Source: a virus
Lineage: Duplodnaviria; Caudoviricetes
Strand: one strand, 5' to 3'
IMG/VR virus record: IMGVR_UViG_3300021432_000012
Location: 1 to 51,034 of that record
Length of the DNA stretch: 51,034 bases
In this document: one piece after another, positions 1 through 50,566 of the stretch
Layout of the letters: each line of letters starts with the position of its first letter
How positions within the stretch are numbered: the first letter of the stretch is position 1
Translations under genes and position numbers: made by a program
Notes under the pieces: generated by a model
The model's database searches: none
Seen by the model: only the letters and a program-made list of their open reading frames with translations
Told to the model about the DNA's origin: nothing

Positions 1-16
1 CGCAAAAATCATTGCA

Positions 17-586
17 GTGAATCAGGAAGCTTTTGATGTTTTCATGGTTCTTTGCAGTGGGAAGTTTGCAGGTCAGTTGATTATTCCTTCTGGGGTTGAA
101 ATATCGGCCCCGGCGCTGGCAAAGTGCAACGATGTGGTTGTCTGCGAAGGAGCGAGTTTCACGGTCCCGGCGCTGGCAGAGTGCAACGATGTGGTTGTCC
201 GCAAAGGAGCGAGTTTCACGGTCCCGGTGCTAGCAAAGTGCAACGATGTGGTTGTCTACGAAGGAGCGAGTTTCACGGCCCCGGTGCTAGCAAAGTGCAA
301 CGATGTGGTTGTCCGCGAAGGAGCGAGTTTCACGGTCCCGGCGCTGGCAGAGTGCGACAATGTGATTGTCCGCGAAGGAGCGAGTTTCACGGTCCCGGCG
401 CTGGCAAAGTGCAACAATGTGATTGTCCGCGAAGGAGCGAGTTTCACGGTCCCGGCGCTGGCAGAGTGCAACAATGTGTATGTCTACGAAGGAGCGAGTT
501 TCACGGTCCCGGCGCTGGCAGAGTGCAACGATGTGGTTGTCCGCAAAGGAGCGAGTTTCACGGCACCTCAACTAAAAAGGAAATGA
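17..586 (+). CDS. Tandem-repeat solenoid (LRR/L-domain-like) protein, copy A, 8 x 19-aa units; probably 5'-truncated by the contig edge
   Basis: Unit P[AV]LA[KE]C[ND][DN]V[VIY]V[CRY][EK]GASFT[VA]. The frame is open upstream of the GTG (AKIIAV...) to the contig edge and no RBS is visible. Confidence 0.85.
   Translation: MNQEAFDVFMVLCSGKFAGQLIIPSGVEISAPALAKCNDVVVCEGASFTVPALAECNDVVVRKGASFTVPVLAKCNDVVVYEGASFTAPVLAKCNDVVVREGASFTVPALAECDNVIVREGASFTVPALAKCNNVIVREGASFTVPALAECNNVYVYEGASFTVPALAECNDVVVRKGASFTAPQLKRK
110..565 (+). repeat. Coding tandem array, 8 x 57 bp
   Basis: Direct reading; consensus ccggcgctggcaaagtgcaacgatgtggttgtccgcgaaggagcgagtttcacggtc. Confidence 0.97.
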
Positions 587-13857: not shown

Positions 13858-14072
13858 GATACTCAGATTAAATTCTTTCCAAGTTAGCTTCCTGTGAAAA
13901 CATCTCCTGACTTATCTTTATCTTCTCTTGAAGAATTGGTAACGCAATTTATAAAAGAAGGCGGAAATATGACATTTGTGCCTGAATTGGCGGTATTCTC
14001 CCTTGCGACACTTGGCATAACTATAGAATCAGCCATGCGCGCTTCCAGTTACGCTATCTTGAAGGAGATGCA

Positions 14073-14243
14073 ATGCCATTGATTAAAAGCCCGTCTAAGA
14101 AAGCCTTTTCAACTAATATCGCGACAGAGCGCGATGTTGGCAAGCCGATCAAGCAAGCCATTGCAATTGCCGAAAGCGTTAAGCGCGAATCAATCAAGGA
14201 TTCCCTGAATAAACGGCTATCCGGATTACTCGGTGGAAAGTGA
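14073..14243 (+). CDS. Small basic phage protein (MPL.K..S.K....NI..E...GKP.KQA.AIA family), C-terminus replaced by an insertion
   Basis: AAGGAG RBS. Removing 14215-15420 restores ...DSLNKHWSQGEKKKK* (3' remnant 15421-15452). Confidence 0.75.
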   Translation: MPLIKSPSKKAFSTNIATERDVGKPIKQAIAIAESVKRESIKDSLNKRLSGLLGGK

Positions 14244-14483
14244 CAAATGATGAGTAGTCTCTTCCATGTGGAAACGGGTATTGCACTCAATGCACACGAG
14301 CAGGGCGTTCTCGACCTTGGTATGGTCGCCGTCGGTAAAGGCCCGAAAGTGCGCCAGAACCTCAGCGTCAGCATCCATCTCAGCCGGCGCGAACAGTCCG
14401 TGGCAGCACGCGCAGCGGTAGAGGCTCTTGCTCTCGGCCGCGCGCTGGGCGCGCAGCTGGCGGCCGGCCGAGAGTTTAACAGC
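14226..14483 (-). other. Start-less HNH-like ORF, in frame after the PAPS-reductase UGA
   Basis: AVKLSAGRQLRAQRAAESKSLYRCACCHGLF...VLAHFRAFTDGDHTKVENALLVCIECNTRFH... (translated by hand). Confidence 0.55.
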
Positions 14484-15332
14484 TCAGTCACCGCAAAAGC
14501 ACGAGATGGCTTCTTCATTGTTGTCAAACCCATACATGTCGGATTGGTTCCTAACGAAGTCGTACATACTGCCGTAGCCAGGCCGGTCGATGCGGAACCG
14601 GCAGCCATCCCCATGAGCAACCGCTTCGGCCTGCTTCTCCTGGGTAGCCCACCAGATGCCGCGCTCGGGCTTCTCAGCAATCAGGCTGACCAGGGAAGCG
14701 CCTGTCTTCAGGAAGCACAGGTCGCAGTTGCCGTGAATCGTCTTGCCGCCGTTGTTGGGCAAAGCAAGGTCAAAGGGCTGGGCGCGCCAGAACTCCCCCA
14801 CGCCACCGGCGGTAACGAAGGCATCGGCCAGCGGGATGCGAACGAACTCGTCCGGCGTCTCGGGATGTGGGTTGAATCTGAACTTGGCGACCCGGCGCGG
14901 CTCGTCGGCCCGGATGCCAAGCATCGTTTCCCACTCCTGGATGCCCAGGGACCGAAGGTAGCGGTGAATGGTGCGGGTCTTCAGCTCGGAGGAGCAGTAC
15001 CGGGAGCGAGGATTGGGAAGCACGCCGCCCCGCTGCCGAATAACCGCTTCGAAGGGATCACCGTTCCGGCTCGCCGTTTCGAAAGTGACAACCTCGAACT
15101 GGCCTCCCTCCCGATATTCAAGCCACGTGATGTGCACGCCCCAGTGCAGCGCGATATCTCGAATGAAGCGGAGTGTCGCCTCATCCTCCTTGCCGGTGTT
15201 GCAGAAGATGAGGAATGTGTCATCAGGGACTCCACCGTTGCTCTCGATGACTCGCTTCAGCAGGTAGGCAGAAGTCCGTCCGCCGCTGACGTTGACACAA
15301 GCTGGGCTGGCAATCTTAAAAGGGTCAAACAT
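14484..15332 (-). CDS. Phage PAPS-reductase-family (PP-loop, probable Fe-S) protein
   Basis: SGGRTS, FCNTGKE, RYCSSELK, GIRADEPRR, GNCDLCFLK, CFCGD; GAGG RBS. Confidence 0.92.
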   Translation of the reverse strand: MFDPFKIASPACVNVSGGRTSAYLLKRVIESNGGVPDDTFLIFCNTGKEDEATLRFIRDIALHWGVHITWLEYREGGQFEVVTFETASRNGDPFEAVIRQRGGVLPNPRSRYCSSELKTRTIHRYLRSLGIQEWETMLGIRADEPRRVAKFRFNPHPETPDEFVRIPLADAFVTAGGVGEFWRAQPFDLALPNNGGKTIHGNCDLCFLKTGASLVSLIAEKPERGIWWATQEKQAEAVAHGDGCRFRIDRPGYGSMYDFVRNQSDMYGFDNNEEAISCFCGD

Positions 15333-15460
15333 GATGTCCTCATTTCCACCACTTAATCCGGAATTTAATTATACTGAACAACTATGTTTTCCACCACTTA
15401 TTCCGGAGTGCCGAATAAACATTGGTCACAGGGCGAAAAGAAGAAAAAATAGGATCAATC

Positions 15461-15649
15461 ATGATTGAGGCCGTGATATTACTGGAAGTAATTGCTCTAT
15501 CACTCCTAATTGGGCTAGCACTCGCAGTATTAGCTATTTACAAGCTTCTCACTTCAGATATAGACTCGCAAGAGCGCATCATCAATGACAGCCCACCGTT
15601 ATCGCGCATCGTAGTTACCGTCCATCAACAAGATTATGAGGAATCATAA
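15461..15649 (+). CDS. Small membrane protein
   Basis: AGGA RBS; one long hydrophobic segment. Confidence 0.55.
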   Translation: MIEAVILLEVIALSLLIGLALAVLAIYKLLTSDIDSQERIINDSPPLSRIVVTVHQQDYEES

Positions 15650-15787
15650 TGACTGAAGACCAAATCAAATCCCACGAAGATGACTTGCGCGCTCGGATAG
15701 AGTCGCTATTTTCTTACGTCCATCCTGATATTGGGACAAAAGGCTTGTCGCCCACTCAAGTACACCACGTAGGCGAATAGGCACAAA

Positions 15788-16318
15788 TTGAAAAATTCCT
15801 CCTTCACCAAAGACGCATCAAAACTCACTGAGAGGCAAAAACGCTTCGCGGAGGAATACCTCATTGATCTAAACGCTACGGCAGCTTACAAGCGCGCTGG
15901 ATACGCTGGAAAGGGGAATGGTGCTGAGGTCAATGCTTCCAGGCTACTAAGTAATACTAAGGTGCAACAATATGTACAATTTCGCATGGATAAGCGGTCT
16001 GAAGACTTGGGAATTGATGCGAATTATGTCCTTGCGGCTATAAAAAGCACAATGGAGAGGTGCCAGCAAGCCGAGCCAGTTATGGTTTTCAACCATGAAA
16101 CAAAGGCTATGGAGCCTTCTGGTGAGTACAAGTTCGACTCTATGGCCGTACTGAAAGGTGCCGACCTATTAGGTAAGCATCTAAAGATGTTCACTGACAA
16201 GATAGAGCATTCTGGCCCAGATGGTGGCGCGATCCAGATAGCAGCGGTTGATATGACCAAGCTTACAGAGGCCGAATTGGCTGTATTGACGAAAACTCTT
16301 GGAAAGATAGCTGAATAA
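15788..16318 (+). CDS. terS: Terminase small subunit
   Basis: LTERQKRFAEEYLIDLNATAAYKRAGY...ASRLL...LLGKHLKMFTDKIEHSGPDGGAI. Confidence 0.95.
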   Translation: MKNSSFTKDASKLTERQKRFAEEYLIDLNATAAYKRAGYAGKGNGAEVNASRLLSNTKVQQYVQFRMDKRSEDLGIDANYVLAAIKSTMERCQQAEPVMVFNHETKAMEPSGEYKFDSMAVLKGADLLGKHLKMFTDKIEHSGPDGGAIQIAAVDMTKLTEAELAVLTKTLGKIAE

Positions 16319-16414
16319 CAGTGAAGTGGTATTATAAAGTGCCAAAAAAAGCGGGTTTATACCGATAATAGACAATACCAGTTGCATATTAAGCATTAAT
16401 TACCTTCAAAATGC

Positions 16415-18007
16415 ATGATCGACCTAAGCCGCTTCACCAAACGCCAAGCAAAAGAACTTCACGAACTCGCATTGCTTGAGCAAGAGCGACGTCACTGCAA
16501 TAAACTAATCAACTTCGTCGAACGAGCTTGGCCCATTATTGAGCCTACTGAGCCGTTTCAATATAATTGGCATCTTGATGTAATCTGCGACCATCTCGAA
16601 GCGATTACACGCGGAGAGCTTAAGAATCTGCTAATCAACGTTCCGCCAGGCACTATGAAAAGCATCTTGGTCAGCGTCATGTGGCCTGCATGGGAATGGC
16701 GGCTAGACCAATCTCTACGATATTTCTGCGTTTCCTACAGCGAAACTCTGACAATCCGCGATAGTACCAAGGTCCATGACATCATTGAATCTGATTGGTA
16801 TCATAAACTTTGGCCGAAAGTCGCGATCAAAAAGGGCGAAGATCAGAAGACCAAATATGCACTTACCGGGGGTGGTTGGCGCTTGGCTACTTCAATTGGC
16901 GGTCGCGGCACTGGTGAGCATCCTGACCGCAAGATCGTTGATGACCCGAGTAATGTCCTGCAATCCGAATCGGATGTAGAACGCCAAGGAAGTTTAGACT
17001 ATTTCGACCGCACGCTATCTACGCGGGGAGCTTCACGTAACGCTGCTACTGTTGTTGTAATGCAACGTCTCCATGAGAAGGATTTGACCGGTCACATCAT
17101 GGCGCAGGCAGACTACGAGAAGGACTGGTCACATATCTGCTTGGAAATGGAATATGAAAGTGACCGCTCCAGACCATTCATACCGTTCACCGATCCACGA
17201 AAGAATCTCGGCGACTTGCTATGGCCTTCTTTCCTGAACCGAAAAGCAGTCGAAACGATAAAGATGCGGCTTGGAAGTTATGGTACTGCTGGTCAGTTAC
17301 AGCAACAGCCTGCTCCAGAAGGAGGCGGGATACTCAAGGTTGAGAATTTCAAGACTTGGTCGAAAGACACAGAAATCCCTCCATTCTTCTACATACTCCA
17401 ATCGTATGATACGGCATTCACAGATAAAACAAAGAACGACCCTACTGGCTGCTTAGTTCTCGGGCTGTTTCGTCACAAGGGCCGAATCTGCGTGATGATT
17501 CTTGATGCGTGGGACGATTGGCTAACCTACCCAGAATTCCGAGAGAAGATTATTGCTGATTGGTCTGTCCCGTATGGCGGCAATAAAAAGTCTGAAGCTA
17601 ACAAAGCGCGCCGTCCTGATGCGTTACTTATCGAGGAGAAAGGTTCTGGCATTGCCGTCATACAAGAGTTGCGCCTAGCGGGAATCCCGGCTTTGTCTTA
17701 CAATCCAGGTAAGGCAAGCAAGGAACAGCGAGCGCATATTGTCGCCCCTATCGTAGAGCTAGGCATCATTTACGTGCTAGAATCGCAGAAATTGGGCGAA
17801 GAAGGTAAGCCTCGCACTTGGGCGCGGCCTTTCTTGGCGCAGGTAGAAAAGTTTCCAAATGCAGAACATGATGAGTATGTAGATTGTCTGACACAGGCTC
17901 TGATTCTCCTACGTGATAAGGGGATGTTTGACCTACAAGAAGTACCTGAAGACCCAGATATTGAAGTAGACTATCACGCCAAGAAACGCGGAAACCCTTA
18001 CCTATAA
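16415..18007 (+). CDS. terL: Terminase large subunit
   Basis: INVPPGTMKS Walker A, IVDDP, VMQRLH, SYDTA, IEEKGSG, FPNAEHDEYVD. Confidence 0.97.
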   Translation: MIDLSRFTKRQAKELHELALLEQERRHCNKLINFVERAWPIIEPTEPFQYNWHLDVICDHLEAITRGELKNLLINVPPGTMKSILVSVMWPAWEWRLDQSLRYFCVSYSETLTIRDSTKVHDIIESDWYHKLWPKVAIKKGEDQKTKYALTGGGWRLATSIGGRGTGEHPDRKIVDDPSNVLQSESDVERQGSLDYFDRTLSTRGASRNAATVVVMQRLHEKDLTGHIMAQADYEKDWSHICLEMEYESDRSRPFIPFTDPRKNLGDLLWPSFLNRKAVETIKMRLGSYGTAGQLQQQPAPEGGGILKVENFKTWSKDTEIPPFFYILQSYDTAFTDKTKNDPTGCLVLGLFRHKGRICVMILDAWDDWLTYPEFREKIIADWSVPYGGNKKSEANKARRPDALLIEEKGSGIAVIQELRLAGIPALSYNPGKASKEQRAHIVAPIVELGIIYVLESQKLGEEGKPRTWARPFLAQVEKFPNAEHDEYVDCLTQALILLRDKGMFDLQEVPEDPDIEVDYHAKKRGNPYL

Positions 18008-18013
18008 AGCAAA

Positions 18014-20779
18014 ATGGCTATACTACCCATCGAACAGGAATACGGCAGGCACATTGATCCTATCGTGGATGGGGAAGACGAATCGCCCGATCTACCAGAT
18101 TTGCCTAGTATGACCCAGAATCCTGATGGGTCTATTGATTTTCACGATGATGATGAAGATCAAGAAGAAAGTGGATTTCTTGATAATTTGGCAGAAATCT
18201 TAGAAGATGGCGAACTTCGTGCCATTGCCAGTGATCTTCTGGAAAAGATCGAGATTGACCGTGGAGCGCGTGAGGCACGGGACAAACAATACGCCGAGGG
18301 AATCAAACGTACGGGATTGGGTAGTGAGGCTCCAGGTGGCGCAGACTTCGAAGGCGCTAGCAAAGCTGTTCATCCGGTACTGGCTGAAGGTTGCGTAGAT
18401 TTCGCCGCTCGTGCCATCAAAGAGATTTACCCTCCTTCCGGGGCTTGCAAAACTCAGATAATCGGCAAAGTTACTGATGAAAAACTGGCGAAGGCTGAGC
18501 GCAAGAAGCAGTACATGAACTGGCAATTGACGACACAGATTGCCGAATATAGAGATGAAAAAGAGCAGGAACTGACGCAATTGCCGCTCGGTGGATCGCA
18601 GTACATGAAATGGTACTATGATCCAGTTCAGAGGCGTCCACGCGTCGAATTCATCCCAATCGACCATTTTCTCCTACCATTCTCTGTCACGCACTTCTAT
18701 TCGGCGCATCGTGCCACGCATCAGCAATTAATCAGCCGTCAGACGTTCGAGAAACGCATCGAGTCTGGTTTATATCTCGATGTGAGATATACCGATCCGG
18801 GTCAAGATGATTTAGAGACTAAGGCGCAGAAAGCAAGCAACAAGATTGAGGGCAAGGAAGAACTATTCTACAACGAGGACGGTCTGCGCACGGTCTATGA
18901 AATTTATGTCGATTATGATATCAGCGTAGAAAAAGGCGTACGACCATACATCATCAGCATTGATGAAGCAACAAGCGAAGTGCTGGCGATTTACCGAAAT
19001 TGGGATGAGGAAGACGAAAGCCACAAGAAACTTGATTGGGTGGTCGAAGATAAGTTCATTCCTTGGCGCGGGGCATACGGAATAGGATTGCCGCACTTAA
19101 TCGGGTCACTCGCTGGCGCATTGACTGGTGCGCTGCGTGCATTGCTGGATTCGGCACATATCAATACTTCCCCATCACTGGTTAAGCTGAAGGGTGGCCG
19201 TAATGCCGGAGAATCCATCTCTATTGATCCTGGCACGATAGCAGAACTAGAAGGGGTTGCCGGTGTAGATGACATTCGCAAGATGATTATGCCGATGCCA
19301 TACAACCAACCTTCTCCTGTCCTGTTCCAGTTGCTCGACTGGATCACGAATCAGGCTAAAGGAGTGGTCGGCACCGCGGAGGAACGCATTGCCGACGCTG
19401 GCAATAATATGCCAATGGGGACAGCACTTGCGCTTATTGAACAGGGTAGCGTTACTTATTCGGCGATTCATGGACGGCTGCACGCGGCTCAGAAAAAATC
19501 CTTGGAAATATTGCACCGAATCAATTCAAAGTTTCTTGATGACGAAGAAACTATAGAAGAACTTGGGGATTTGATTGTTAGGCGCGAAGATTTTCAAGGG
19601 CCAATGGATATCATCCCGGTATCTGATCCTAACATCTTCAGTGATGCACAGAGATACGCGCAGTTGCAAGCTGTCATGCAATTGGCCGATAAATACCCGC
19701 AACTTTATGACGAAGGCGAACTGAACAAGCGCGCTCTTGCGCTCCTGAACTATCCAAACGCTGAAGATATCCTAAAGACATCGCCAGATGCGCAAGAGCT
19801 TGACCCGATCATGGAGAACTACACAGCAGCAGAAGGAAAGCAGCCACTGAAGGTATATGACGATCAGGACGATTTGACTCACATGATGACACATTTGCAC
19901 TTCATGACAAGCCCAATATTCGCCCAAAATCCTATGATGAATGGCGTAATTGGGCCTTTGATGGCGCATGTTAAAGATCACTTCTTGGCTTTCTATAAAA
20001 AAGAAGCGCAAGCCGCTGTCGCTGCTACCGCGCAAGTTACGGGTACTTCAGAGGACCAAGCGCATTCGGTTGCATCTGGAGTGGGCGATGCCGTGATGGC
20101 GCAGAAGCTAGCACCAGTCATGCAAATGATGCAGCAGGTTCAGCAGTATCAACAGCAGAATCCCCCTTCTCCACCTCCGCTTGATCCGCAGTCTCAGGTC
20201 GCATTGCAGTTAGGCCAAGCAAAGATTCAGGCGCAAACCCAACAAGACCAAGCTGTCTTGGCTCAGGAAGGCCAATTAGCGCAAGCGAAGATGCAGGCAG
20301 AAGCACAAGAGAAACAGGCACAGATGGCTTTCGACCAGCAAGTGCAACAAGCACAAAGCCAGAAGGACATGATAGAAGCGCAACAAAATGCTCGTGATGC
20401 TGAACTAGCCGCACAAACTGAGGCTGTGAATGCTCACATCAAAGCGCAGACCGATTTGCAAATGAATGAGCAGGATAACCGGACGGCGATGCTTATCGAA
20501 ACGATGAAAGAGCAGCAGCAAGCGCAGATTGAACAGAATAATCATGTGCGTGACATGTTATCAATGATTAAAGATCAGGGAACGCCTAATATTGACTTGA
20601 CTCCGATCAAGGAAATGATGAGCGACCATGTGAATGCGTTGAACAACATGATGGGCCATATCAAAGACCTTGGTGCGCATCACGTTGAAATGCAAATTGC
20701 AATGCAGAAATTGAGCAAGCCTAAACGCGTTATCAGGGATGCAAATGGCGATATTGTTGGATTACACACTGAGGATTAA
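18014..20779 (+). CDS. Portal protein with long Q-rich C-terminal coiled coil
   Basis: Position after terL; GASKAVHPVLAE, PWRGAYGIGL, IIPVSDPNIFS motifs. Confidence 0.9.
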   Translation: MAILPIEQEYGRHIDPIVDGEDESPDLPDLPSMTQNPDGSIDFHDDDEDQEESGFLDNLAEILEDGELRAIASDLLEKIEIDRGAREARDKQYAEGIKRTGLGSEAPGGADFEGASKAVHPVLAEGCVDFAARAIKEIYPPSGACKTQIIGKVTDEKLAKAERKKQYMNWQLTTQIAEYRDEKEQELTQLPLGGSQYMKWYYDPVQRRPRVEFIPIDHFLLPFSVTHFYSAHRATHQQLISRQTFEKRIESGLYLDVRYTDPGQDDLETKAQKASNKIEGKEELFYNEDGLRTVYEIYVDYDISVEKGVRPYIISIDEATSEVLAIYRNWDEEDESHKKLDWVVEDKFIPWRGAYGIGLPHLIGSLAGALTGALRALLDSAHINTSPSLVKLKGGRNAGESISIDPGTIAELEGVAGVDDIRKMIMPMPYNQPSPVLFQLLDWITNQAKGVVGTAEERIADAGNNMPMGTALALIEQGSVTYSAIHGRLHAAQKKSLEILHRINSKFLDDEETIEELGDLIVRREDFQGPMDIIPVSDPNIFSDAQRYAQLQAVMQLADKYPQLYDEGELNKRALALLNYPNAEDILKTSPDAQELDPIMENYTAAEGKQPLKVYDDQDDLTHMMTHLHFMTSPIFAQNPMMNGVIGPLMAHVKDHFLAFYKKEAQAAVAATAQVTGTSEDQAHSVASGVGDAVMAQKLAPVMQMMQQVQQYQQQNPPSPPPLDPQSQVALQLGQAKIQAQTQQDQAVLAQEGQLAQAKMQAEAQEKQAQMAFDQQVQQAQSQKDMIEAQQNARDAELAAQTEAVNAHIKAQTDLQMNEQDNRTAMLIETMKEQQQAQIEQNNHVRDMLSMIKDQGTPNIDLTPIKEMMSDHVNALNNMMGHIKDLGAHHVEMQIAMQKLSKPKRVIRDANGDIVGLHTED

Positions 20780-20781
20780 TC

Positions 20782-21219
20782 ATGTCTGGATACAAAGGAA
20801 ACACATGGGCGAATAACTTGCAGAAGCTGACGTTCAATGCGACGGCTATCGCCAACATTGCCGACAACGCTGCTACCTCGCCATTGACGAATCTATACCT
20901 TTCTCTGCATACTGCTGATCCTGCATCAAGCGGTAATCAGGGGACTAACGAAACGGTCTATACGAACTATGTCAGACTGGCAGTTGCGCGAACTTCTGGC
21001 GGTTGGACGGTATCAACAAATTCCAGCACGAACGCGGCTACTGCGGCTTTTGCGCAATGCGGCGCGACCGGCGCGACGATTACGCATGTGGGTATCGGTA
21101 CGGCTTCTAGCGGGGCAGGCATTCTTCTGTACGCGGGGCCGCTCACATCCTCCTTGATCGTGAACAATGGCATTACTCCACAGTTTGCGGCATCTGGGCT
21201 GACTGTTACTGAATCTTAA
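20782..21219 (+). CDS. Virion structural (fibre-associated) protein
   Basis: LYLSLHTADP...ETVYTNYVR...ITHVGI...LLYAG...TPQFA family. Confidence 0.75.
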   Translation: MSGYKGNTWANNLQKLTFNATAIANIADNAATSPLTNLYLSLHTADPASSGNQGTNETVYTNYVRLAVARTSGGWTVSTNSSTNAATAAFAQCGATGATITHVGIGTASSGAGILLYAGPLTSSLIVNNGITPQFAASGLTVTES

Positions 21220-21221
21220 TC

Positions 21222-21674
21222 GTGAATACTATGTCAATAACTCCAGCACAATTATCCACATTTAAGACGGACATTCAGAGTAATGCTGGCGTAACAGCTT
21301 TGCTTGCTGCAAAGAATTACACAGGAATTGCGGCGTTTTATAACGGAGCAGGTACTGGTAGTGTGTGGAATCCTAGTCTGACAATAGCTCAGATAATGAC
21401 AGCTATTGTCTGGTCTGAATTCATTGCTTTAACAACTGCAAAGATGACTGCATTCCAAGTAATGACGGCTAATGGACAAATTGATGCCACAAGCGCAAAT
21501 ATTAGAAATGGGTTTTCTACAATATTCGCGGCAACTACGACATTGACGAATTTGACAGCAATCGCTTCTAAAACTCCGACTGTCTTTGAGGCTTTGTATG
21601 CATCTGCCAATGTGACGCCGGTCTATGGGTATGTTGTCCAGTTGCAAGATGTCTATAATGCGCTAGGGGTATAA
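21222..21674 (+). CDS. Putative virion structural protein
   Basis: Operon context; Thr/Ala-rich. Confidence 0.65.
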   Translation: MNTMSITPAQLSTFKTDIQSNAGVTALLAAKNYTGIAAFYNGAGTGSVWNPSLTIAQIMTAIVWSEFIALTTAKMTAFQVMTANGQIDATSANIRNGFSTIFAATTTLTNLTAIASKTPTVFEALYASANVTPVYGYVVQLQDVYNALGV

Positions 21675-21675
21675 G

Positions 21676-22155
21676 ATGACCACTAATTTTAAAGAGGCAC
21701 TAAATACCCAGAGTACATTGACGATCACTCTCGCTAGTTTGGCTGCGTCGGCGACTGCCGGGAGGCAATCTACTTTGGTGGATAACCGCACGAACTTATT
21801 CCAAGGCGCGCAGATCATGGTCAAATTTAAGACCGGGGCATCTGGCGTATCTGCTACCGGAACAGTAGTAATTTATGCAATCGGCTCTATGGATGGAGGA
21901 ACGACTGTCACTGATGGTGGTGGAGCTTCAGATGCTGCACTCACGCGGGTGAATGCGATTCCTATTGCAACAATGAACTGTACTGCGAATGCTACTACCT
22001 ATATCGGCGGTCCTTATGAAGTCGGCCCATCATTCGGCGGTGAATTGCCTGGTGAATGGGGAATTTTGCTTGTCAATAATACAGGCAGCACATCTGATAC
22101 GACGGCTGGTAATTTTTCTGTTCAATACCAAGAGTTCTACACTACTGGCGCTTAA
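21676..22155 (+). CDS. Putative beta-sandwich virion protein
   Basis: Context; FGGELP..WGI..VN.TG. Confidence 0.65.
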   Translation: MTTNFKEALNTQSTLTITLASLAASATAGRQSTLVDNRTNLFQGAQIMVKFKTGASGVSATGTVVIYAIGSMDGGTTVTDGGGASDAALTRVNAIPIATMNCTANATTYIGGPYEVGPSFGGELPGEWGILLVNNTGSTSDTTAGNFSVQYQEFYTTGA

Positions 22156-22158
22156 CCA

Positions 22159-23613
22159 ATGAAAGCGCTACGTACGTCGCAACCCGGTCAACCTGCGTTT
22201 CTTGATCTCACCAATCGCTATACACGTGGCATTCTATCAGCTTGGACGAATAATTGGATAGCCACGCCTGGCAGGATTGATCCGGCAAAGCTAGGTACTT
22301 CTGTTGCTGGCCCGTTTGGGCAGGCTAGTTCATGTAACGGCACGAGTGATGTTATTACACTTCCTGCCGGATCGCTTTCGCATGGTGGTGCTTGTACAAA
22401 ATTTGCTTTCCTAAAAATAGGAGCAGCTACTAGCACGCATTGTATTTCCGGATCAGGAAACAGCACTGTTGCTTGGCGCACTAACGTAGCCGCAATTGAT
22501 ATTGTCAATGTAGGCGTACAGGTATGCGGAAGCTTTGCTGGCGTAGTTTCAGCAAATGAGGTTTGCACACTTGCTTTTGTGGTTGGTGGAACTGGAGTTA
22601 CGGGCGACCCTATTAGTTTATATAAAAATGGTATCTTATTTGGGTCTTCAACATTAACAGTCTCCCTTCCATCTGGAGCAGGAACTCCTCAATTAGGAAG
22701 TAATGGCGCAGCAGGCCAATTTTGGGACGGCTCAATTGCGTTTCATGCTGATTTTAGCGTCGCACTTACCGCATCTGAAATTCTTGCATTGCACACAAAT
22801 GCATGGCAGGTATTTTATCAAAAGAGCAGACGTCAAAGCATTATCGTCCCGGCATCTACTGGAAGCACTGCAACAATCGCAGGGACTAGTACATTAGCAG
22901 GAACATTGGTCGGTATCGGTGCACTTTCTGCAAATATCGATTGCACATCTACACTAGCGGGAACGCTGACTGGAATTGCCGCTGCCATCGCCACAATCGG
23001 CACTACGTCATCAGTTAGTGGGACTTTGACAGGAATTGGCGCGCTTGCAATGTCAATTGGTGGTCTAAGTTCAGTCGCAGCAACATTAACCGGCATTGGG
23101 CAGTTAAATGCGACCATTGGCGCAAGTTCATCTGTCAATGCTGTCCTTGGAACTGGCAGCCAGATGGCGACTATTGCCGCTACTTCTACAGTCGCCGCTA
23201 CAATGTCAGGGTCTGGAGCTTTCACCGGACAGATAGATAATACATCCTCTGTCAGTGCGACATTATCAGCTGGTGGAACTGCACAAAGTGGAGTCACACG
23301 TGCGTTTGCGATTGAATACTACACAAAACTGATTGAAGAAAAGAATAAGAAGGAAGAAAAGAAGGTAACAGAGAAGAAGTTCAAGAAGCGCAAGCCATTA
23401 TATGAAATTGATGATGAAGAAGACGATGATTATGTGCCGCCTTCTTACGTTTTTACGCCTAGAAAGCGTGTTGATATTAACATTACAGCGATGATTGCAG
23501 ATATAATGCGCATTGGACATCCTGTAAATCAATATGGTTTTCGTCCGCAACGTTCACCGCAAGCGAGAATGCGCAACAAGCGCGATGAAGAAGCGCTATT
23601 GATGTTATTTTAG
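22159..23613 (+). CDS. Fibre-like protein: LamG-like head, beta-repeat shaft, charged C-terminus
   Basis: LYKNG...FWDGSIA...ALTASEI..L; repeated ATI.GTS.L.GTL.G; ends RDEEALLMLF. Confidence 0.7.
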   Translation: MKALRTSQPGQPAFLDLTNRYTRGILSAWTNNWIATPGRIDPAKLGTSVAGPFGQASSCNGTSDVITLPAGSLSHGGACTKFAFLKIGAATSTHCISGSGNSTVAWRTNVAAIDIVNVGVQVCGSFAGVVSANEVCTLAFVVGGTGVTGDPISLYKNGILFGSSTLTVSLPSGAGTPQLGSNGAAGQFWDGSIAFHADFSVALTASEILALHTNAWQVFYQKSRRQSIIVPASTGSTATIAGTSTLAGTLVGIGALSANIDCTSTLAGTLTGIAAAIATIGTTSSVSGTLTGIGALAMSIGGLSSVAATLTGIGQLNATIGASSSVNAVLGTGSQMATIAATSTVAATMSGSGAFTGQIDNTSSVSATLSAGGTAQSGVTRAFAIEYYTKLIEEKNKKEEKKVTEKKFKKRKPLYEIDDEEDDDYVPPSYVFTPRKRVDINITAMIADIMRIGHPVNQYGFRPQRSPQARMRNKRDEEALLMLF

Positions 23614-23623
23614 GAGAAATAGA

Positions 23624-23899
23624 ATGGCAACTCAAAGGCAACATTACACTTATGCCACTACTGGAAAAGTAGAAGGTATAAAGAAAAGTCCTACGCGTGA
23701 TGGTGGCGAAGACAGCATGAAAAAAGGTGGTCTTGTACGAGAAAAAGAAACAGGCAAGAAGGTTAACAAAAGCGGAGTTGTCCATAAAAAAGAAGGCGGC
23801 ATGATTAAGGGTCTTCCAGAAAGCCCCATTACTGTCGCAAAACGTGACAATGGCATTCCAGGTTACAAGCATGGCGGCAAGGTAAGAAGCAAAAAATGA
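23624..23899 (+). CDS. Small basic protein with three xKxGGx[VI] motifs
   Basis: MKKGGLV, KKEGGMI, YKHGGKV. Confidence 0.75.
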   Translation: MATQRQHYTYATTGKVEGIKKSPTRDGGEDSMKKGGLVREKETGKKVNKSGVVHKKEGGMIKGLPESPITVAKRDNGIPGYKHGGKVRSKK

Positions 23900-24084
23900 T
23901 TGCTCAATTAGAAAAGGCTCTCCTTAGGCTTCACGAAAAACGTGAGGAATTAGGGAAAAGCGTTTTCGATACACCGCCAGCCAATATGGAGCAGTTCAAT
24001 AAATTGCTCGGTCAGTATCTTGGATTGGGTGAGGCACTCGCGGAAATTGATTTTATTTTGAAGGGGATTGAAAATGAAATTTAA
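23896..24084 (+). CDS. Conserved small head-module protein
   Basis: EQFNKLLGQYLGL..A motif, typical upstream of phage groES. Confidence 0.7.
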   Translation: MIAQLEKALLRLHEKREELGKSVFDTPPANMEQFNKLLGQYLGLGEALAEIDFILKGIENEI

Positions 24085-24316
24085 AGTAACTTACCCATCC
24101 GGTGTTGTAGAGGAATGTGAGCACTCAGATGATAACCAAACCATAGCAGGTTTCATCAATGCGAAGTTCGGGTCTGTTGATCCTGCGGAACATGGCGTCA
24201 CAGTCGAAGAAATAAGCGAGTCTCCTACTGTAACCGAAGCCACGCCAGAAGTTGTCCCAACAATCGTCAATATGACGGCTACTGTAACCGCAGTATCTCA
24301 AGCGAGCGGAGGATAA
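24068..24316 (+). CDS. Hypothetical protein
   Basis: ORF in operon. Confidence 0.6.
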   Translation: MKMKFKVTYPSGVVEECEHSDDNQTIAGFINAKFGSVDPAEHGVTVEEISESPTVTEATPEVVPTIVNMTATVTAVSQASGG

Positions 24317-24318
24317 TC

Positions 24319-24495
24319 ATGGCTACGAAATGGATACAAGGTGCAATAAAAAAACCTGGCGCTTTACGTAAAGAATTGGGCGTTAAAGCTGGTGAAAAAA
24401 TCCCAGCAAAGAAACTCGAAAAAGCCGCAGAAAAAGGCGGCAAAGAAGGTAAGCGCGCAAGACTCGCTGAAACTCTCAAAGGATTCAAGAAATAA
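24319..24495 (+). CDS. Small basic phage protein
   Basis: MATKWIQGAIKKPGALRKELGVKAGEKIPAKKL...KRARLAETLK (translated by hand); GGAGG RBS. Confidence 0.85.
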   Translation: MATKWIQGAIKKPGALRKELGVKAGEKIPAKKLEKAAEKGGKEGKRARLAETLKGFKK

Positions 24496-24498
24496 TCG

Positions 24499-24519
24499 AA
24501 AGCGCTACGGCGCTTTTTT
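24499..24519 (+). terminator. Rho-independent terminator
   Basis: aaagcgc-tacg-gcgcttt followed by a T-run. Confidence 0.75.
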
Positions 24520-24647
24520 ATTACAAATATATATTGCGCACAACTTGATTGTTCATATTAAAGTTTAGTGCAATGCAATTGGCAGTAATCAAATTTATTG
24601 CGATTAAATTGCGAAAGTTTTATTGTAGTGCCACAAGGAGAAGACGA

Positions 24648-25127
24648 ATGTCTGCTGAATTAGTAATGCCAACATCTACCGATCTGCAAAAATATGCCGA
24701 TGTCAAGCCAGTCGTAAGGACTGACCCTATTCCACTTGATTGGTATTTCCCGAAACTTGATCCAGGCCGCAGACCATTGGGAGCTCGCGTTATTGTCCAA
24801 TTGCGCCGCACTAAAAAGACTTCCAAGGGTGGGATCATCCTGCAACATGAGACAAAAGTCACTGAGAAATGGAATGACCAAGTGGCTATGGTCGTTGCAC
24901 TTGGGCCGATTGCTTTCCGCAATCGGGAAACAATGGCTGAATGGCCCGAGGGAATTTGGACATCTCCAGGTAAATTTGTCAGTGTCCCGCGATGGGGTGG
25001 TGATCGGTGGGAGAAGAAAGTAGAAGGGGAAGAAGAAGAAGTAACCTTTGTAACTTTCAATGACCATGAACTTATTTCGGAAATTACCGAAGACCCGCGC
25101 AATGTCAACGCTTACATTTTGGAGTAG
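24648..25127 (+). CDS. groES: Phage co-chaperonin GroES
   Basis: PLGARVIVQ...TSKGGIIL...VVALGP...NDHELI; AAGGAG RBS before ATG 24648. Confidence 0.88.
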   Translation: MSAELVMPTSTDLQKYADVKPVVRTDPIPLDWYFPKLDPGRRPLGARVIVQLRRTKKTSKGGIILQHETKVTEKWNDQVAMVVALGPIAFRNRETMAEWPEGIWTSPGKFVSVPRWGGDRWEKKVEGEEEEVTFVTFNDHELISEITEDPRNVNAYILE

Positions 25128-25130
25128 AAA

Positions 25131-26075
25131 ATGAGCAACCAAACTGAACATGAAGAAGACTACGAATTAGACGAAGAACTTGACGAACATCATGAGGATG
25201 AAAACCATGATGGCGAAGAGAAGAAAGAGGATGACAATCCTGATGAACAGGAACATGATGAACGAACTGGCGATCACGATGAAGAACGTGAGGCTATTCA
25301 GGCCCGTCGCCGCAAGGAACGTCAAGATAGAAAACAACGACGCAAGGAATATGAGGATGGTCTAAAGCGGGAGATAGCCGCTGCTAGGCAACAGAACCAA
25401 ATCCTTGAGGAACGTCTAGCATCGGTCGAGAAAAAAACTACCTCCAGTGAGTTGATGCAGCTTGACCAAGCAATCAGCGAACTAAACAATCAGGCTCTTT
25501 TTTACAAGAATCAAGTTGCGGACGCTAGTACTCGCCAAGATGGCATGGCAGTAGCAGATGCGACAGAGCGCATGATCGAAGCCCGTAATAAAGCTGTTCA
25601 GCTTCAAACTATCAAGCAGAACTACAGTAAGCAGCAAGTCAATCAGCCGCGAGGATTGGATACTCGTGCTCAAGAGCTTGGGCAAAGATGGCTTTCTAGT
25701 AATACTTGGCTGAATATGCATAATACTGATGCCGATACGCAGTTGGTGAAAGATATTGATAACCAAATTGCAAAAGAAGGTTTTGTGCCTTCTACGGAGG
25801 CTTATTGGGACGAACTTACTGCGCGTGTCAATAAATATTTGCCACATAAAGCAAATGGGAATAGAATGCAAAGCAGCAACAATAAAGAAAGCCGCAACAA
25901 AACGGTTGTTACTGGTTCCGGGCGTGAGTCTTCGTCGAGTGGAACCAATACATTCCGGTTGTCCCCTGATAGGGCGAAGGCTTTGGCAGACGCCGGATAC
26001 GAACCCGGTACACCAGAGTACGCAAAAATGGTTAAAAGGTATCGTGCTTACGATACGGATAACCGTAAAAACTAA
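25131..26075 (+). CDS. Capsid scaffolding protein
   Basis: Acidic N-terminus, long coiled coil, W...N.W and YWDEL..R motifs; position. Confidence 0.8.
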   Translation: MSNQTEHEEDYELDEELDEHHEDENHDGEEKKEDDNPDEQEHDERTGDHDEEREAIQARRRKERQDRKQRRKEYEDGLKREIAAARQQNQILEERLASVEKKTTSSELMQLDQAISELNNQALFYKNQVADASTRQDGMAVADATERMIEARNKAVQLQTIKQNYSKQQVNQPRGLDTRAQELGQRWLSSNTWLNMHNTDADTQLVKDIDNQIAKEGFVPSTEAYWDELTARVNKYLPHKANGNRMQSSNNKESRNKTVVTGSGRESSSSGTNTFRLSPDRAKALADAGYEPGTPEYAKMVKRYRAYDTDNRKN

Positions 26076-26093
26076 TCAGGAAGGATAACGACC

Positions 26094-26645
26094 ATGACAC
26101 GACATTCAAACGGCTTTGTAGGCGGTGATGACCGTCTCCGCAAATCGTCCGGCGACAATCGTACAGATCGCGATTCTGCTGATTTGGACCGCATTGCGCA
26201 AGATGGAACCGCTCTAACTGCTGCGGAACGGCGTAAGCTGCTACGCGCAGAATTCACGCAAGAAATTCTACCATCCTGTCCTCCCATTCCTGGTTGGCAT
26301 CTTTGCTGGTTATCGACTAATAGCAAGGGTGACCCAATCCATGCACGCATGCGCCTTGGCTATGTTCCAGTCAAGTCAAATGAAGTGCAGGGATTGGAAA
26401 AATACGGGATGACTGGCGGAGAATGGGATGGCATGATTTCTTGTAACGAAATGCTTCTGTTTAAAATCCCCAATGAGACCTATCAAGACATGATGACATT
26501 GTTTCATCATGATATGCCATTGGAAAATGAAGAAGCAATCAGGAGCCAGATAGACGGGCAGGAAATTGCCGTGGAAGCTGAAAAAGGCGTTCCCGATGGT
26601 TTCAACCAACTCGCGCATAAAGTCCGAACCCCTACATTTATTTAA
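26094..26645 (+). CDS. Conserved head-module protein
   Basis: LP..PPIPGWHLCWLST...RMRLGYVPV...CNEMLLFKIP. Confidence 0.75.
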   Translation: MTRHSNGFVGGDDRLRKSSGDNRTDRDSADLDRIAQDGTALTAAERRKLLRAEFTQEILPSCPPIPGWHLCWLSTNSKGDPIHARMRLGYVPVKSNEVQGLEKYGMTGGEWDGMISCNEMLLFKIPNETYQDMMTLFHHDMPLENEEAIRSQIDGQEIAVEAEKGVPDGFNQLAHKVRTPTFI

Positions 26646-26660
26646 TTTCGGAGAAATATC

Positions 26661-27230
26661 ATGAGTGCAACGAGCAACCCATTTGGCTTCCGTCCTGCGG
26701 AAAGCCCAATAGGCAATTCGCGTGCAAATACGTACAATATCGCCTCTGGCTATGGTACGGCTATGTACAAAGGACAGCCTGTCATTCTGAATACTAACGG
26801 CACAATCACAGCTGGTACTTCCGCAGCCGATATTATCGGTGTATTCGCGGGTTGTGAATATGTCGATTCAACTGGACGACCACAACGGTCAACTTTCTGG
26901 CCTGCTTCCACTACTGTACTCGCAGGTACTTTGCCTGTCGCGTATGTATGGGACGACCCGAATACCGTATTTGAAGTTCAATCTGATGGATCAATAGCCC
27001 AAGTTGATATCGGTGATCAGTGCGACGTAAGTAACGTAAGCAATGCAAATACTACTGCTGGGTTGTCTCAGTGCACACTGAGCGCAACGAAAGCAGGGGC
27101 CGGCTCTCAAGGCCAATTTCGTATTCTGCGCTTCGCTGGTCAGGTAGATAATGTGGTAGGTGACGCTTTTACCGTGGTTCAGGTACAAATCGCACGTAGC
27201 CAGTATATCGCTAACAAAGTCGCCATTTAA
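26661..27230 (+). CDS. Capsid decoration / cement protein
   Basis: PFGFRP...GVFAGCEY...DDPNTVFEVQ; directly upstream of the MCP gene. Confidence 0.75.
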   Translation: MSATSNPFGFRPAESPIGNSRANTYNIASGYGTAMYKGQPVILNTNGTITAGTSAADIIGVFAGCEYVDSTGRPQRSTFWPASTTVLAGTLPVAYVWDDPNTVFEVQSDGSIAQVDIGDQCDVSNVSNANTTAGLSQCTLSATKAGAGSQGQFRILRFAGQVDNVVGDAFTVVQVQIARSQYIANKVAI

Positions 27231-27259
27231 TTAGCCAAAACTCATAAAGGAGAATTATC

Positions 27260-28177
27260 ATGGCAACTAATATTATGCGCAGTACGGACTTTAAAAGCAT
27301 CGTTGAGCCAATACTCAACGAAGCCTTTGACGGCATCTACGACCAACGTGATGACGAATACAAACAGATTTTCAAGGAAAGCATGGGTATTCCACGTGCT
27401 TATCATGAAGAACCTGTGCTGTTCGGCTTCAACGCCGCACCGGAACTTCCAGACGGCATGCCAGTCACGTATCAGGCCGGTGGTATCTTGTTCAACCAGC
27501 GCTATATCTACAAAGTCTACGGCTTGGCTTATGCCTTGACAAAAGTCTTGGTAGAAGATGGCGACCATATCCGCATCGGCAAAACCTATGCAGAGCATCT
27601 AGCACAATCCTTGATTGAAACCAAGGAACTGAATTGCGCCAACATCCTAAACCGTGCATACAATTCATCGTATAACATCGGTGACGCGACTACTTTGGGC
27701 AGTTCTTCTCATCCATTAGTGAATGGTACTTTCTCTAATATATTGTCGGTGGCAGCAGCTTTGTCACAGACATCGTTAGAGCAAATGCTGATCTTGTTAC
27801 GCACTAACGGCGTGGACAACAACGGCAAAAAAGTACGTTTGATGCCTGAAAAATTGGTAGTTGCACCTGGTAACGAATTGCAAGCAGAAGTCTTGCTCAA
27901 TTCCGTCCTGCGTACCGGAACCAATAACAATGACATCAACCCTATCAAGTCGATGGGTTATCTGAAGAAAGTGGCTGTTATCACTCGCCAGACTTCAGCA
28001 ACTCAGTGGGGTATCACTACCGATGTTAAGGACGGCTTTAAACTGTTGATGCGCCGTAAAATGGAGAAATCCATGGAAGGCGATTTTGAAACAGACAGCA
28101 TGCGCTTTAAATGCACTGAGCGTTACATCGCAGGGGTCACTGACCCACGCGTGTACTACTCTACTCCTGGCGTTTAA
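27260..28177 (+). CDS. Major capsid protein (HK97 fold)
   Basis: AYHEE...GFNAAP...ETKE..ANILNRA...H P...NDINPI...EGDFET..ERY..G..DPR. Confidence 0.92.
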   Translation: MATNIMRSTDFKSIVEPILNEAFDGIYDQRDDEYKQIFKESMGIPRAYHEEPVLFGFNAAPELPDGMPVTYQAGGILFNQRYIYKVYGLAYALTKVLVEDGDHIRIGKTYAEHLAQSLIETKELNCANILNRAYNSSYNIGDATTLGSSSHPLVNGTFSNILSVAAALSQTSLEQMLILLRTNGVDNNGKKVRLMPEKLVVAPGNELQAEVLLNSVLRTGTNNNDINPIKSMGYLKKVAVITRQTSATQWGITTDVKDGFKLLMRRKMEKSMEGDFETDSMRFKCTERYIAGVTDPRVYYSTPGV

Positions 28178-28187
28178 TGTGAAATTT

Positions 28188-28216
28188 TCTAGGAGGCTAA
28201 CCCCTCCTAGATTTTT
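28188..28216 (+). terminator. Rho-independent terminator after the MCP gene
   Basis: tctaggagg/cctcctaga followed by TTTTT. Confidence 0.85.
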
Positions 28217-28230
28217 GAAAAGGAATTATC

Positions 28231-29385
28231 ATGGCTCTCTGTTTCAATACGGGACCAAATGTCACAACAGGCAATCTTGATACTTCTCAAGTGCATGATG
28301 CTGATATCGGGCCTAATGTGGATTATCAAGGTTCTGGGCTGCTAGACCCGCGCTTTGTGGGTTCTGTCGGTGCTGCTCCAGGTTCTAAAGTATATGCAGT
28401 TTATACAAACCCATTCATTGCGATGGTTGATGCCATTCCGCAAGCTATCGGCGTAGGCCGTATTGCAGCGGCGCAGAATATCACCAATGCAACGGCAATG
28501 ACACTGGTAAGTGCTCAAGGTGCTGGTGTATCTCCAAATATGCCAGTAGTTCCTTTGGGTTCGCAGGTATCTTCTGCGAATGTGGTCAAGGCTTTGGTGC
28601 TTGATTTTGGTTTCAGTACAGGTAATACAACTGCGACATCTGCATCTGTTACCATTCCTGCTGGAGCTAGCAAGTTCTATACGCCAGGTCAGAAAATAGC
28701 AATTTCAGGTGCAGGCGCATCGGCTAACAATCCTCTTCTGACTTCAGTTGTTTCTGTCTCTGGCACAACTCTTGTAGTTAAAGACGTTGCAGGCCAGACA
28801 GTAAGCAATGCGCAGATAGGAACATTGGATTTGACAGGCACTCAAATCTGGCCTTACATCTATGCTGGCGGTGTTGCTTGTTATGACCCGACTCAAGGAT
28901 TGGCTAGGTGTGTTTCAATCACTGGTGCTGCTTCTAATGCTGGCTCTACTTTCACCGTAAAAGGTTATGACATCTATAACCAGCCGATGACTGAAGCAAT
29001 TACAGTAGGTGCTGGTGTGACTACAGCAGTGAACGGTAAAAAAGCTTGGAAGTCGATTGTTTCTGTGACTCCAAATTCCACAGATGCTCATAACTACAGT
29101 GTAGATACTACCGATATTTTCGGACTTGCTGTACGTTCTGATTTCTGGGAATACATGAACGTTTATTACAATGGTGCGTTTGTTTCTGTTAGCACTGGTT
29201 GGACTGTCGTAGACACCACAACTCCAGCGACTACCACCACAGGCGATGTACGCGGTACTTATGCAGTGCAGAGTGCATCTAATGGCACAAAACGTTTAGC
29301 GGCATTTACTTCATTGCCGATATATAATGCCATAGGTGCTAATAACCTGAATACGGTAACGCTGTTTGGTGTTACTAACGTTTAA
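28231..29385 (+). CDS. Virion structural protein
   Basis: FTVKGYDIYNQPMTE...GKKAWK...TTDIFGL...TTGDVRGTY. Confidence 0.75.
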   Translation: MALCFNTGPNVTTGNLDTSQVHDADIGPNVDYQGSGLLDPRFVGSVGAAPGSKVYAVYTNPFIAMVDAIPQAIGVGRIAAAQNITNATAMTLVSAQGAGVSPNMPVVPLGSQVSSANVVKALVLDFGFSTGNTTATSASVTIPAGASKFYTPGQKIAISGAGASANNPLLTSVVSVSGTTLVVKDVAGQTVSNAQIGTLDLTGTQIWPYIYAGGVACYDPTQGLARCVSITGAASNAGSTFTVKGYDIYNQPMTEAITVGAGVTTAVNGKKAWKSIVSVTPNSTDAHNYSVDTTDIFGLAVRSDFWEYMNVYYNGAFVSVSTGWTVVDTTTPATTTTGDVRGTYAVQSASNGTKRLAAFTSLPIYNAIGANNLNTVTLFGVTNV

Positions 29386-29449
29386 TCACACTCACCCCTC
29401 GTGCTGTATAGCATAAGGAGGGGGAAGGAAAAAATATCGGATAGAAAAG

Positions 29450-30448: not shown

Positions 30449-30699
30449 GCAAATATCTTGATACAAATGGTAAAACTAGTCTCGCAGTAGGAATATGTGA
30501 CCGTTGCCATTTCAAAATGGCGCTCGCAGATATGGTCTCCGATCCTAATTCACCGGGCCTACGTGTGCATGCTGAATGTAAAGACCAATTTGACCCATAT
30601 CGTTTAGCCGCACGACAGCCAGAAAAAATAACCGTCCGTGAGCCGCGTCCTGATGCTGATATCAGCTTACCTACTGGCGTAATACCGCCGACTCTGTAA
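30445..30699 (+). CDS. Conserved small Cys protein
   Basis: ICDRC...PGLRV..EC.D...DPY...PRPD. Confidence 0.75.
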   Translation: MSKYLDTNGKTSLAVGICDRCHFKMALADMVSDPNSPGLRVHAECKDQFDPYRLAARQPEKITVREPRPDADISLPTGVIPPTL

Positions 30700-30708
30700 G
30701 GAGAAATC

Positions 30709-50328: not shown

Positions 50329-50335
50329 ATTTTCC

Positions 50336-50566
50336 TCAATGATTAGCAACGTACAAGACAGTAATCGCACAGATAGCAATTACAATTCCGCTGATAATCA
50401 AACTTACATCGATACCAGGGGCTGATTCGCCAAGTATATAATCTGATTGCATATGCGCACGATTCAGCCGTGCTAATTTACGCCAAGTGCGCCAATTTGC
50501 ATACTTTATTGAGATACGCGCACTCAATAATCGGATCATTGATTGTATTATCTGTTTCACAATCAT
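50336..50566 (-). CDS. Small protein with C-terminal TM
   Basis: ATGA-coupled to repeat gene B; LIISGIVIAICAITVLYV. Confidence 0.6.
   Translation of the reverse strand: MIVKQIIQSMIRLLSARISIKYANWRTWRKLARLNRAHMQSDYILGESAPGIDVSLIISGIVIAICAITVLYVANH

Follow-up and report, generated by a model that had tools for sequence, protein, structure and literature searches.

The LRR consensus is LxxLxLxxNxL, and in the LRRs encoded by plant R genes and in the VLRs of lampreys the xxLxLxx faces of the repeats are hypervariable. Among phages, an example of protein diversification is the DGR of Bordetella phage BPP-1, which acts on Mtd. Large DNA viruses also carry multigene families in which a repeat region is joined to a constant domain, such as the Ank/PRANC proteins of the poxviruses and the ankyrin proteins of giant viruses.

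Here we describe a gene family found at both ends of a viral contig. The window, as we call the whole stretch of DNA that was analysed, is an entire IMG/VR virus record of 51,034 nt, which is classed there as having inverted terminal repeats and a CheckV completeness of 100. Judged from the sequences, the family is genuine, is out of the ordinary and bears a clear signature of diversification. The full genes encode a conserved N-terminal domain of approximately 120 aa that is DUF7666-like (the N-domain), followed by a predicted open beta-solenoid of 19-residue, LRR-like rungs.

Several known systems resemble this family in part. A partial likeness is seen to the short bacterial LRR solenoids, of which Vibrio FlrP (PDB 8Z5U) is a solved example: the spacing of the conserved residues in the phage unit (C7-V10-V12-G15-F18) mirrors the general LxxLxLxxNxL consensus, and the variable residues of the phage units lie at the x positions of the strand. 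The phage repeats differ from these solenoids in their period of 19 aa, in a Gly that replaces the Asn ladder, in the absence of a signal peptide, and in being phage-encoded and fused to a DUF7666-like domain. A 19-residue beta-helix repeat period is shared with the passengers of the autotransporters AIDA-I, TibA and Ag43; however, the sequence matches of the phage protein to AIDA/TibA are below threshold (24.3 bits versus a cut-off of 27; E 0.059), and the phage protein is small and apparently cytoplasmic, with neither a secretion signal nor a translocator barrel. With the R-gene LRRs and VLRs the family would have in common a conserved scaffold, replacements on an exposed strand and recombination of near-identical modules, but the proteins are not homologous, the phage diversity lies among germ-line paralogues and their units, and in the phage family there is no evidence for somatic assembly or for a deaminase. 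Like the DGR target Mtd, the family is phage-encoded and its variation is confined to chosen codons of a putative binding protein, although here the variable region is a tandem array of variable length without adenine specificity. As in the poxvirus Ank/PRANC and giant-virus ankyrin families, there are probably several paralogues per genome, each with one conserved domain and variable repeats; the repeat type is different, and the matches to such proteins among the BFVD models are weak leads only.

Truncated array genes at the ends of the window

Copy A is a 5'-truncated gene (positions 2-586, + strand) with a stop codon at 584-586 and an array of eight tandem 57-nt (19-aa) units at 107-562 (+). 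Copy B, also 5'-truncated, occupies 50563-51033 (- strand) and contains six tandem 57-nt units at 50587-50928 (-). A previous, sequence-only reading of this DNA had described arrays of eight and six units on opposite strands at the two ends, and this was confirmed from the sequence; the gene start that it placed at position 17 was wrong. Each of the two frames runs off its end of the contig, so copies A and B are truncated genes, and their homologues have 94 additional N-terminal residues.

The first 127 nt of the window (1-127, +) recur without a mismatch, in reverse complement, at 50908-51034, and they also match perfectly the last 127 nt (1357-1483) of a second contig, L003, which is described below. 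This stretch encodes the end of the N-domain, consisting of a helix and the first rung, together with the first part of unit 1; in the structural model of P0004, a full-length homologue, the corresponding part contains a helix at residues 101-111 and a strand at 115-122. Beyond nt 127 copies A and B differ unit by unit, they then share an identical tail, and they diverge 3 nt past the stop codon.

The tail has the sequence APQLKRK followed by the stop (563-586, + strand, in copy A), and the stop overlaps an ATG (ATGA). In the tandem copies this overlap is the start of the next gene, whereas copy A is followed only by a four-codon remnant (MIDK), apparently left behind when a tandem copy was lost or rearranged. 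The stops of both array genes overlap an ATG in this way (563-600 and 50550-50566), and MIDK corresponds to the first codons of a gene start of the type found in another contig, L004.

Directly downstream of copy A is a gene for an HTH_3 (XRE-type) regulator (600-787, +), which is followed by helicase/primase genes. Downstream of copy B is a small ORF of 76 aa with a hydrophobic C-terminal stretch (50336-50566, -), whose ATG overlaps the copy B stop and for which PHROG and Pfam searches gave no family match. The second gene downstream of copy B, as had been stated previously, encodes an Erf-like single-strand annealing protein (49687-50379, -; phrog_2324, E 1.5e-43; phrog_155, E 5.1e-39). The small and large terminase subunits and the portal are also encoded in the window, and the phage is probably terminase-packaged and of lambdoid type.

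Three other ORFs in the window may be mentioned. A 431-aa ORF in the leftward operon downstream of Erf (47424-48719, -) matches DUF4214 (E 2e-9) and, at a borderline level, the papain family (Peptidase_C1), with no PHROG match. The portal-like ORF (18014-20779, +) is unusually long at 921 aa, and its portal match extends only over residues 152-611. A 192-aa ORF inside the structural module (24549-25127, +) shows a weak GroES-like match.

Additional family members and genome organization

A scan of metagenome contigs identified three loci of one assembly, L003, L004 and L005, that carry members of the family. L003 (1483 nt) contains the end of one gene, a complete second gene and the start of a third, arranged head to tail, and at both of its tail-to-start junctions the stop overlaps the next start (ATGA). 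The whole second gene encodes P0003 (250 aa). P0004, also of 250 aa and encoded on a contig of 51,095 nt, consists of a 94-residue N-terminal extension followed by exactly copy B (residues 95-250), and P0003 has the P0004 N-terminus with a few substitutions and a different six-unit array. L004 contains early genes and then a family gene that is cut by the contig end and whose array has 12 or more units. In L005, a macro-domain gene precedes a family gene that is cut in its leader. The unit counts seen in the arrays are 6, 8 and at least 12. With three tandem genes in L003 and at least 12 units in the L004 array, the earlier description of two loci was an understatement; on the evidence of these contigs, copies A and B belong, as truncated genes, to a more numerous set of paralogues.

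The inverted terminal identity of the window is exactly 127 nt long, and every end of L003, L004 and L005 is likewise an exact 127-mer present in another contig. Positions 1-127 of L005 are the reverse complement of L004 1-127, and the last 127 nt of L004 lie inside gene 2 of L003. Overlaps of 127 nt at contig ends are what a de Bruijn graph built with k=127 leaves behind. The identical leader and tail reported in the sequence-only reading must accordingly be separated: the tail stands, and the identity of the leader is real, but because its length equals the overlap length at all of the contig ends, that length reflects the assembly. The contig stops at both ends inside the gene family because the assembly graph branches there, and the apparent inverted terminal repeat is a single graph vertex reached from two directions and not a molecular end. 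In an independent Logan assembly of a single run (X1), a 428-nt contig covers window positions 1-127 and extends 301 nt beyond position 1. The IMG/VR label of inverted terminal repeats with a completeness of 100 is probably wrong. It appears that approximately 4.7 kb of early genes plus N-domains, and possibly more tandem copies, are missing from the record, with a total of at least approximately 5 kb. More generally, such a label of a complete genome with inverted terminal repeats can arise where a contig breaks in a multicopy gene that is present in both orientations.

When the complement of L005 is joined to L004 through their overlap, the result is a segment of approximately 4.7 kb between two outward-facing family genes. 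On one side are the macro-domain gene and a family gene, and on the other an HTH regulator, a Lar-like restriction-alleviation protein, NinB/Orf, NinG/Rap, a small ORF and at least one family gene. The orientation of this segment fits what the window requires beyond both of its ends, and the segment probably bridges them. That L003-L005 and the window share one genome is the most economical reading of the common 127-mers, though not proof of it. In a genome of this kind, the copies would flank the early segment in opposite orientation, inside two divergent operons that we take to be early from the lambdoid gene order.

The macro-domain gene of L005 (2007-2513, +; Pfam Macro, E 1e-44) is located directly upstream of the family gene and is the first gene after a divergent intergenic region; its product may serve in counter-defence.

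Variation among the repeat units

Thirty-seven units were extracted from the window, L003 and L004. Among their 57 columns 15 are variable, of which 6 fall at the first, 7 at the second and 2 at the third position of a codon. The 37 units comprise 29 distinct types, and only four of these types are common to different arrays. For the 14 units of the window alone, 14 columns vary (6/6/2 at codon positions 1/2/3) and 12 units are distinct. The variable residues are at positions 1, 3, 6, 8, 9, 11, 13 and 14 of the unit, with one change at position 16, while P2, L4, A5, C7, V10, V12, G15, S17, F18 and T19 never change.

In pairwise comparisons of the units pN was 0.104 and pS 0.026, a ratio of 4.0. 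As a control, the N-domains of four copies of the same genes gave a pN of 0.017 and a pS of 0.054 (ratio 0.31), and their 14 variable columns fall at codon positions 1/2/3 in the numbers 3, 4 and 7. The previous claim that the variation is nearly all non-synonymous is upheld by this unit-wise check, and CTG/CTA is indeed the only recurrent silent change, linked to A>V. The third base of the variable codons is fixed trivially, because silent variation is nearly absent. When the column counts are compared by hand calculation with a 3:1 expectation, p is approximately 0.25 for 13 of 15 columns and approximately 0.06 when a distant family member, L014, is added. By column counts, then, the non-synonymous excess is not formally above neutrality, but ordinary purifying selection is clearly excluded.

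The four-gamete test indicates that the units are mosaics, as had been proposed, since all four gametes are present for 35 of the 55 pairs of two-state sites, although a unit is only 57 nt long. The variable residues 8, 9, 11, 13 and 14 surround the invariant V10 and V12, in agreement with the earlier placement of the variation around a C-x-x-V-x-V-x-x strand; they correspond to the x residues in a strand of the xxLxLxx type. The pattern recurs in L014, which comes from another IMG/VR phage and has rungs of 20 aa. Its full units contain seven variable sites, all of them non-synonymous, and pS is 0 for its first seven units; these sites are at homologous strand positions and have similar residue sets (e.g. 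D/Y, R/S, G/D and C/R). Fourteen other family members have five or more repeats, and by our own reading the most variable repeat columns of eight of them are on the same strand.

Proposed recombination and selection

We consider it probable that the window ends in truncated members of a multicopy early-gene family whose units recombine and are under diversifying selection. Homologous recombination within and between copies would gain, lose and exchange units, and selection would keep amino-acid diversity at the exposed strand positions 8, 9, 11, 13 and 14, as well as at 1, 3 and 6. The DNA of the units would be nearly identical, and their silent sites uniform, because recombination exchanges the units. 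Recombination genes are found nearby: Erf lies two genes from copy B, and NinB and NinG are encoded on the bridging contig. Repeats that differ almost only at amino acids predicted to be exposed suggest fast-evolving binding proteins, and we infer the recombination mechanism, an early cytoplasmic expression and a role as binders of variable host or competitor proteins. If this is true, the family would represent a second, RT-free phage route to diversified binders, built on homogenised rungs, selected face residues and early-operon paralogues. In a more elaborate and rather unlikely form of this proposal, the tandem and inverted paralogues would be donor cassettes that trade 57-nt rungs under Erf/NinB/NinG (or Bet/RecE), and the reshuffled early binders, sharing one constant effector domain, would track host defence or competitor proteins; such a system would be a germ-line counterpart of VLR/LRR diversification that operates without reverse transcriptase.

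The order of the units and the joins between arrays and flanks come from short reads assembled with k=127 through repeats of 57 nt, and some of the unit mosaics could be chimeric. It might be argued that the mosaics are mostly a product of this assembly, or of co-existing strains, and that only one or two loci are real. The contigs all end at 127-mers that are common to others, the last 127 nt of L004 fall within an array gene of L003 so that the assembly paths merge inside the arrays, and the N-domain of P0004 resembles the L005 copy in some features and the L004 copy in others. In the independent Logan set, only fragments 55-69 nt long lie on the array; a contig of 8998 nt begins at position 560, no contig spans the array, and neither variants, joints nor loose ends are listed. 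However, a single 51-kb contig takes copies A and B without a break into unique flanks that differ from each other, two tail-to-start junctions are found on L003 by itself, and the variable nucleotides must occur in the reads whichever path is right, such that chimerism may affect the order of the units but not the variant nucleotides. The Logan depth of 138 for the 428-nt N-domain/leader contig, versus 31.7 for the unique-flank contig of 8998 nt, gives a weak hint of approximately four copies of the N-domain/leader module, depth not being a copy number. We therefore regard an origin of the mosaics in assembly or strain mixture as unlikely.

Recombination between the inverted copies might have a different consequence. 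Approximately 400 nt of N-domain and leader are common to these copies, and exchange between them would invert the early segment of approximately 4.7 kb, swapping which array follows which promoter and N-domain, in a manner comparable to the sap inversion of Campylobacter fetus and the G-type switches of Mu. The inverted copies do surround a segment with divergent operons, the Erf, NinB and NinG genes are available, and the P0004 N-domain looks recombinant. Set against this, searches for Resolvase and Phage_integrase were negative for the window and for all 14 ORFs on L004 and L005, and the alternative junctions are present on no contig. As both arms carry complete genes, an inversion would switch nothing on or off. 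A flip-flop of this type is distinctly unlikely to explain the diversity, for which recombination of units among several family members is preferred.

Predicted fold of the repeat region

AlphaFold2 run without an alignment gave a pLDDT of 80-95 for the repeat part, with a 3+9-residue strand pattern in each unit. With an alignment of 90 sequences, P0004 was modelled as an open beta-solenoid (pLDDT 93.7, pTM 0.87). The repeat region had been expected to form a solenoid, and the predicted structures agree with this; AlphaFold2 tends to over-predict solenoids where repeats are near-perfect. Neither model matched a PDB entry at E <= 0.001 in Foldseek. Exhaustive structural alignment ranked beta-helices and solenoids first, the top match being a Legionella Dot protein (6x62_DX; Z 14.6, rmsd 2.5, 143 residues aligned), and putative adhesins, phage tail fibres and bactofilin were also found. 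TibA superposed with a Z of 10.6 (rmsd 3.2, 135 aligned) and Ag43 with a Z of 9.8.

The likeness to LRR-type solenoids that had been proposed earlier is partly supported by the profile of the family (alignment A2), which matches a solved LRR protein, FlrP (PDB 8Z5U), with an E of 5.2e-14. In the accessible text of its description, FlrP is part of the flagellar motor of Vibrio and is an LRR protein with a beta-solenoid fold (bioRxiv 10.64898/2025.12.04.692373). P0004 alone gave a match to TibA only (E 0.059) and none to FlrP or to a Pfam LRR, and LRR_1 was matched by 6 of the 90 relatives. Residues C7, V10, V12 and F18 fit the core spacing of the LRR, with Gly at motif position 9 in place of Asn/Cys. 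From the strand pattern and the LRR register we infer that C7, V10 and V12 form the core and that positions 8, 9, 11, 13 and 14 are the exposed x positions.

A different fold was suggested by Pfam, since the Bflower_3 profile scored 40.9 bits for copy A, 39.7 for copy B and 37.8 for P0004 against a gathering cut-off of 34. In the accessible text of PMC10584680, the beta-flower (Pfam PF21786 being the 6-fold type) is a shallow barrel that is closed and has 4-, 5- or 6-fold symmetry; its petals are hairpins, and a semi-conserved [DNEQ]xxG motif is found at the hairpin tip. The phage unit is as long as one such petal. If the repeat domain were such a barrel, the number of units would set the number of petals. 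The score of P0003 is only 25.0 bits, though, and only 2 of the 90 family members match Bflower_3. The [DNEQ]xxG motif is missing, as the only conserved Gly (position 15) has the invariant Val12 at -3. Both AlphaFold2 models predict the 3+9 strand pattern and have beta-helices as their best matches, and the range of 3 to at least 12 units in relatives fits an open solenoid. A closed beta-flower is thus improbable, and the open solenoid remains the preferred model of the repeat region.

Targeted hypermutation and true terminal repeats as unlikely alternatives

The variable codons are of the form NNC/NNT, 10 of the 15 variable columns include A, and the same strand positions vary in the distant relative L014, all of which is reminiscent of targeted hypermutation by a DGR or of another enzyme-driven process that writes the variable codons. 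The analogy with DGR codons, which the sequence-only reading had drawn, fails on several counts. The reading had noted the absence of a reverse transcriptase, and RVT_1 was not found in the window in a search whose control matched three genomes, nor did an RT turn up when the 14 ORFs on L004 and L005 were examined. No copy of the unit that could act as a template is present in the window outside arrays A and B. Seven A columns are invariant among the 37 units, 5 of the 15 variable columns never contain A, and 10 of the 15 are two-state transitions. The number of units also varies, which is not a product of template-directed replacement. With no RT found in the window or on L004 and L005, no template copy in the window and no A-specific pattern, a DGR is not supported, and we consider enzyme-driven writing of these codons very improbable in comparison with recombination and selection. 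Hardly credible at all is a genuinely linear genome whose long inverted terminal repeats hold one gene copy each, despite the classification and completeness given by IMG/VR, since the terminal identity is exactly the assembler overlap length, the genes are cut mid-domain, both the P0004 contig and the Logan contig continue past the window end, and the presence of terminase subunits, together with the failure to find a protein-primed polymerase in the window (DNA_pol_B_2, for which the positive control matched one genome, below cut-off), makes a protein-primed genome of this type unlikely.

The N-terminal domain and the wider family

A full scan of 1.84 billion representative sequences identified 370 proteins at E <= 0.001. 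Many of these relatives share only the N-domain, which is joined in them to different repeats, including rungs of 16-20 aa, one pentapeptide match and others; among them are 18- and 20-aa types, some of which match Pfam LRR_1. P0004 itself has no match to DUF7666 (PF24703) at E <= 0.01. DUF7666 was weakly matched by 19 of 90 relatives, with a best E of 1e-5 and observed scores of 25.2 and 21 bits versus a cut-off of 27. The nearest structural neighbours of the N-domain are DUF7666 Atlas clusters, which are mostly viral (TM 0.72), and the top BFVD match of the P0004 model is a DUF7666 protein (E 6.2e-5). Among the papers searched, none mentions DUF7666. If the proposed role of the family is true, it would provide the first functional handle on DUF7666, a widespread and mostly viral domain that is joined to many repeat types.

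In the Foldseek comparison with viral models (BFVD), P0004 also weakly matched phage RIIB and giant-virus 'ankyrin repeat' and DUF4116 proteins. These rows had E values of 0.018-0.28 and probabilities of 0.97-1.0 over approximately 100-136 alignment columns, with TM scores of 0.23-0.36 for the RIIB and 'ankyrin repeat' proteins. The matching stretch of the P0004 model is presumably its N-terminal 120 residues or so, which suggests, at the level of predicted structures, that a domain like the N-domain is common to very different viruses.

No match was found in GenBank phages by blastn of positions 1-700, megablast of 14000-34000 or tblastn of P0004, and NCBIfam and PADLOC searches gave no meaningful match for the family. 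IMG/VR scans with copy A and P0004 found no relative, the exact 25-nt unit core is present in no other IMG/VR contig, and none of eight IMG/VR loci with related Erf genes carries a family member in the DNA examined. For a scan of loci, a smaller alignment (A3) was used, the first one (A2) being too diverse, and this gave two viral loci and one genome locus with a single copy each.

A family gene adjoins an annealase in two of the three phage loci examined, the exception being L015. In L014 (2628-5831, +), an unrelated IMG/VR phage, the family gene is located directly after Bet-like and RecE-like genes. L016, a contig of 46 kb assigned to a Patescibacteria MAG, encodes at its end a family member with a DUF7666-like N-domain followed by rungs of the type GGYxHPLPAGLTHVGGSL, and this may be a mis-binned phage contig or a prophage.
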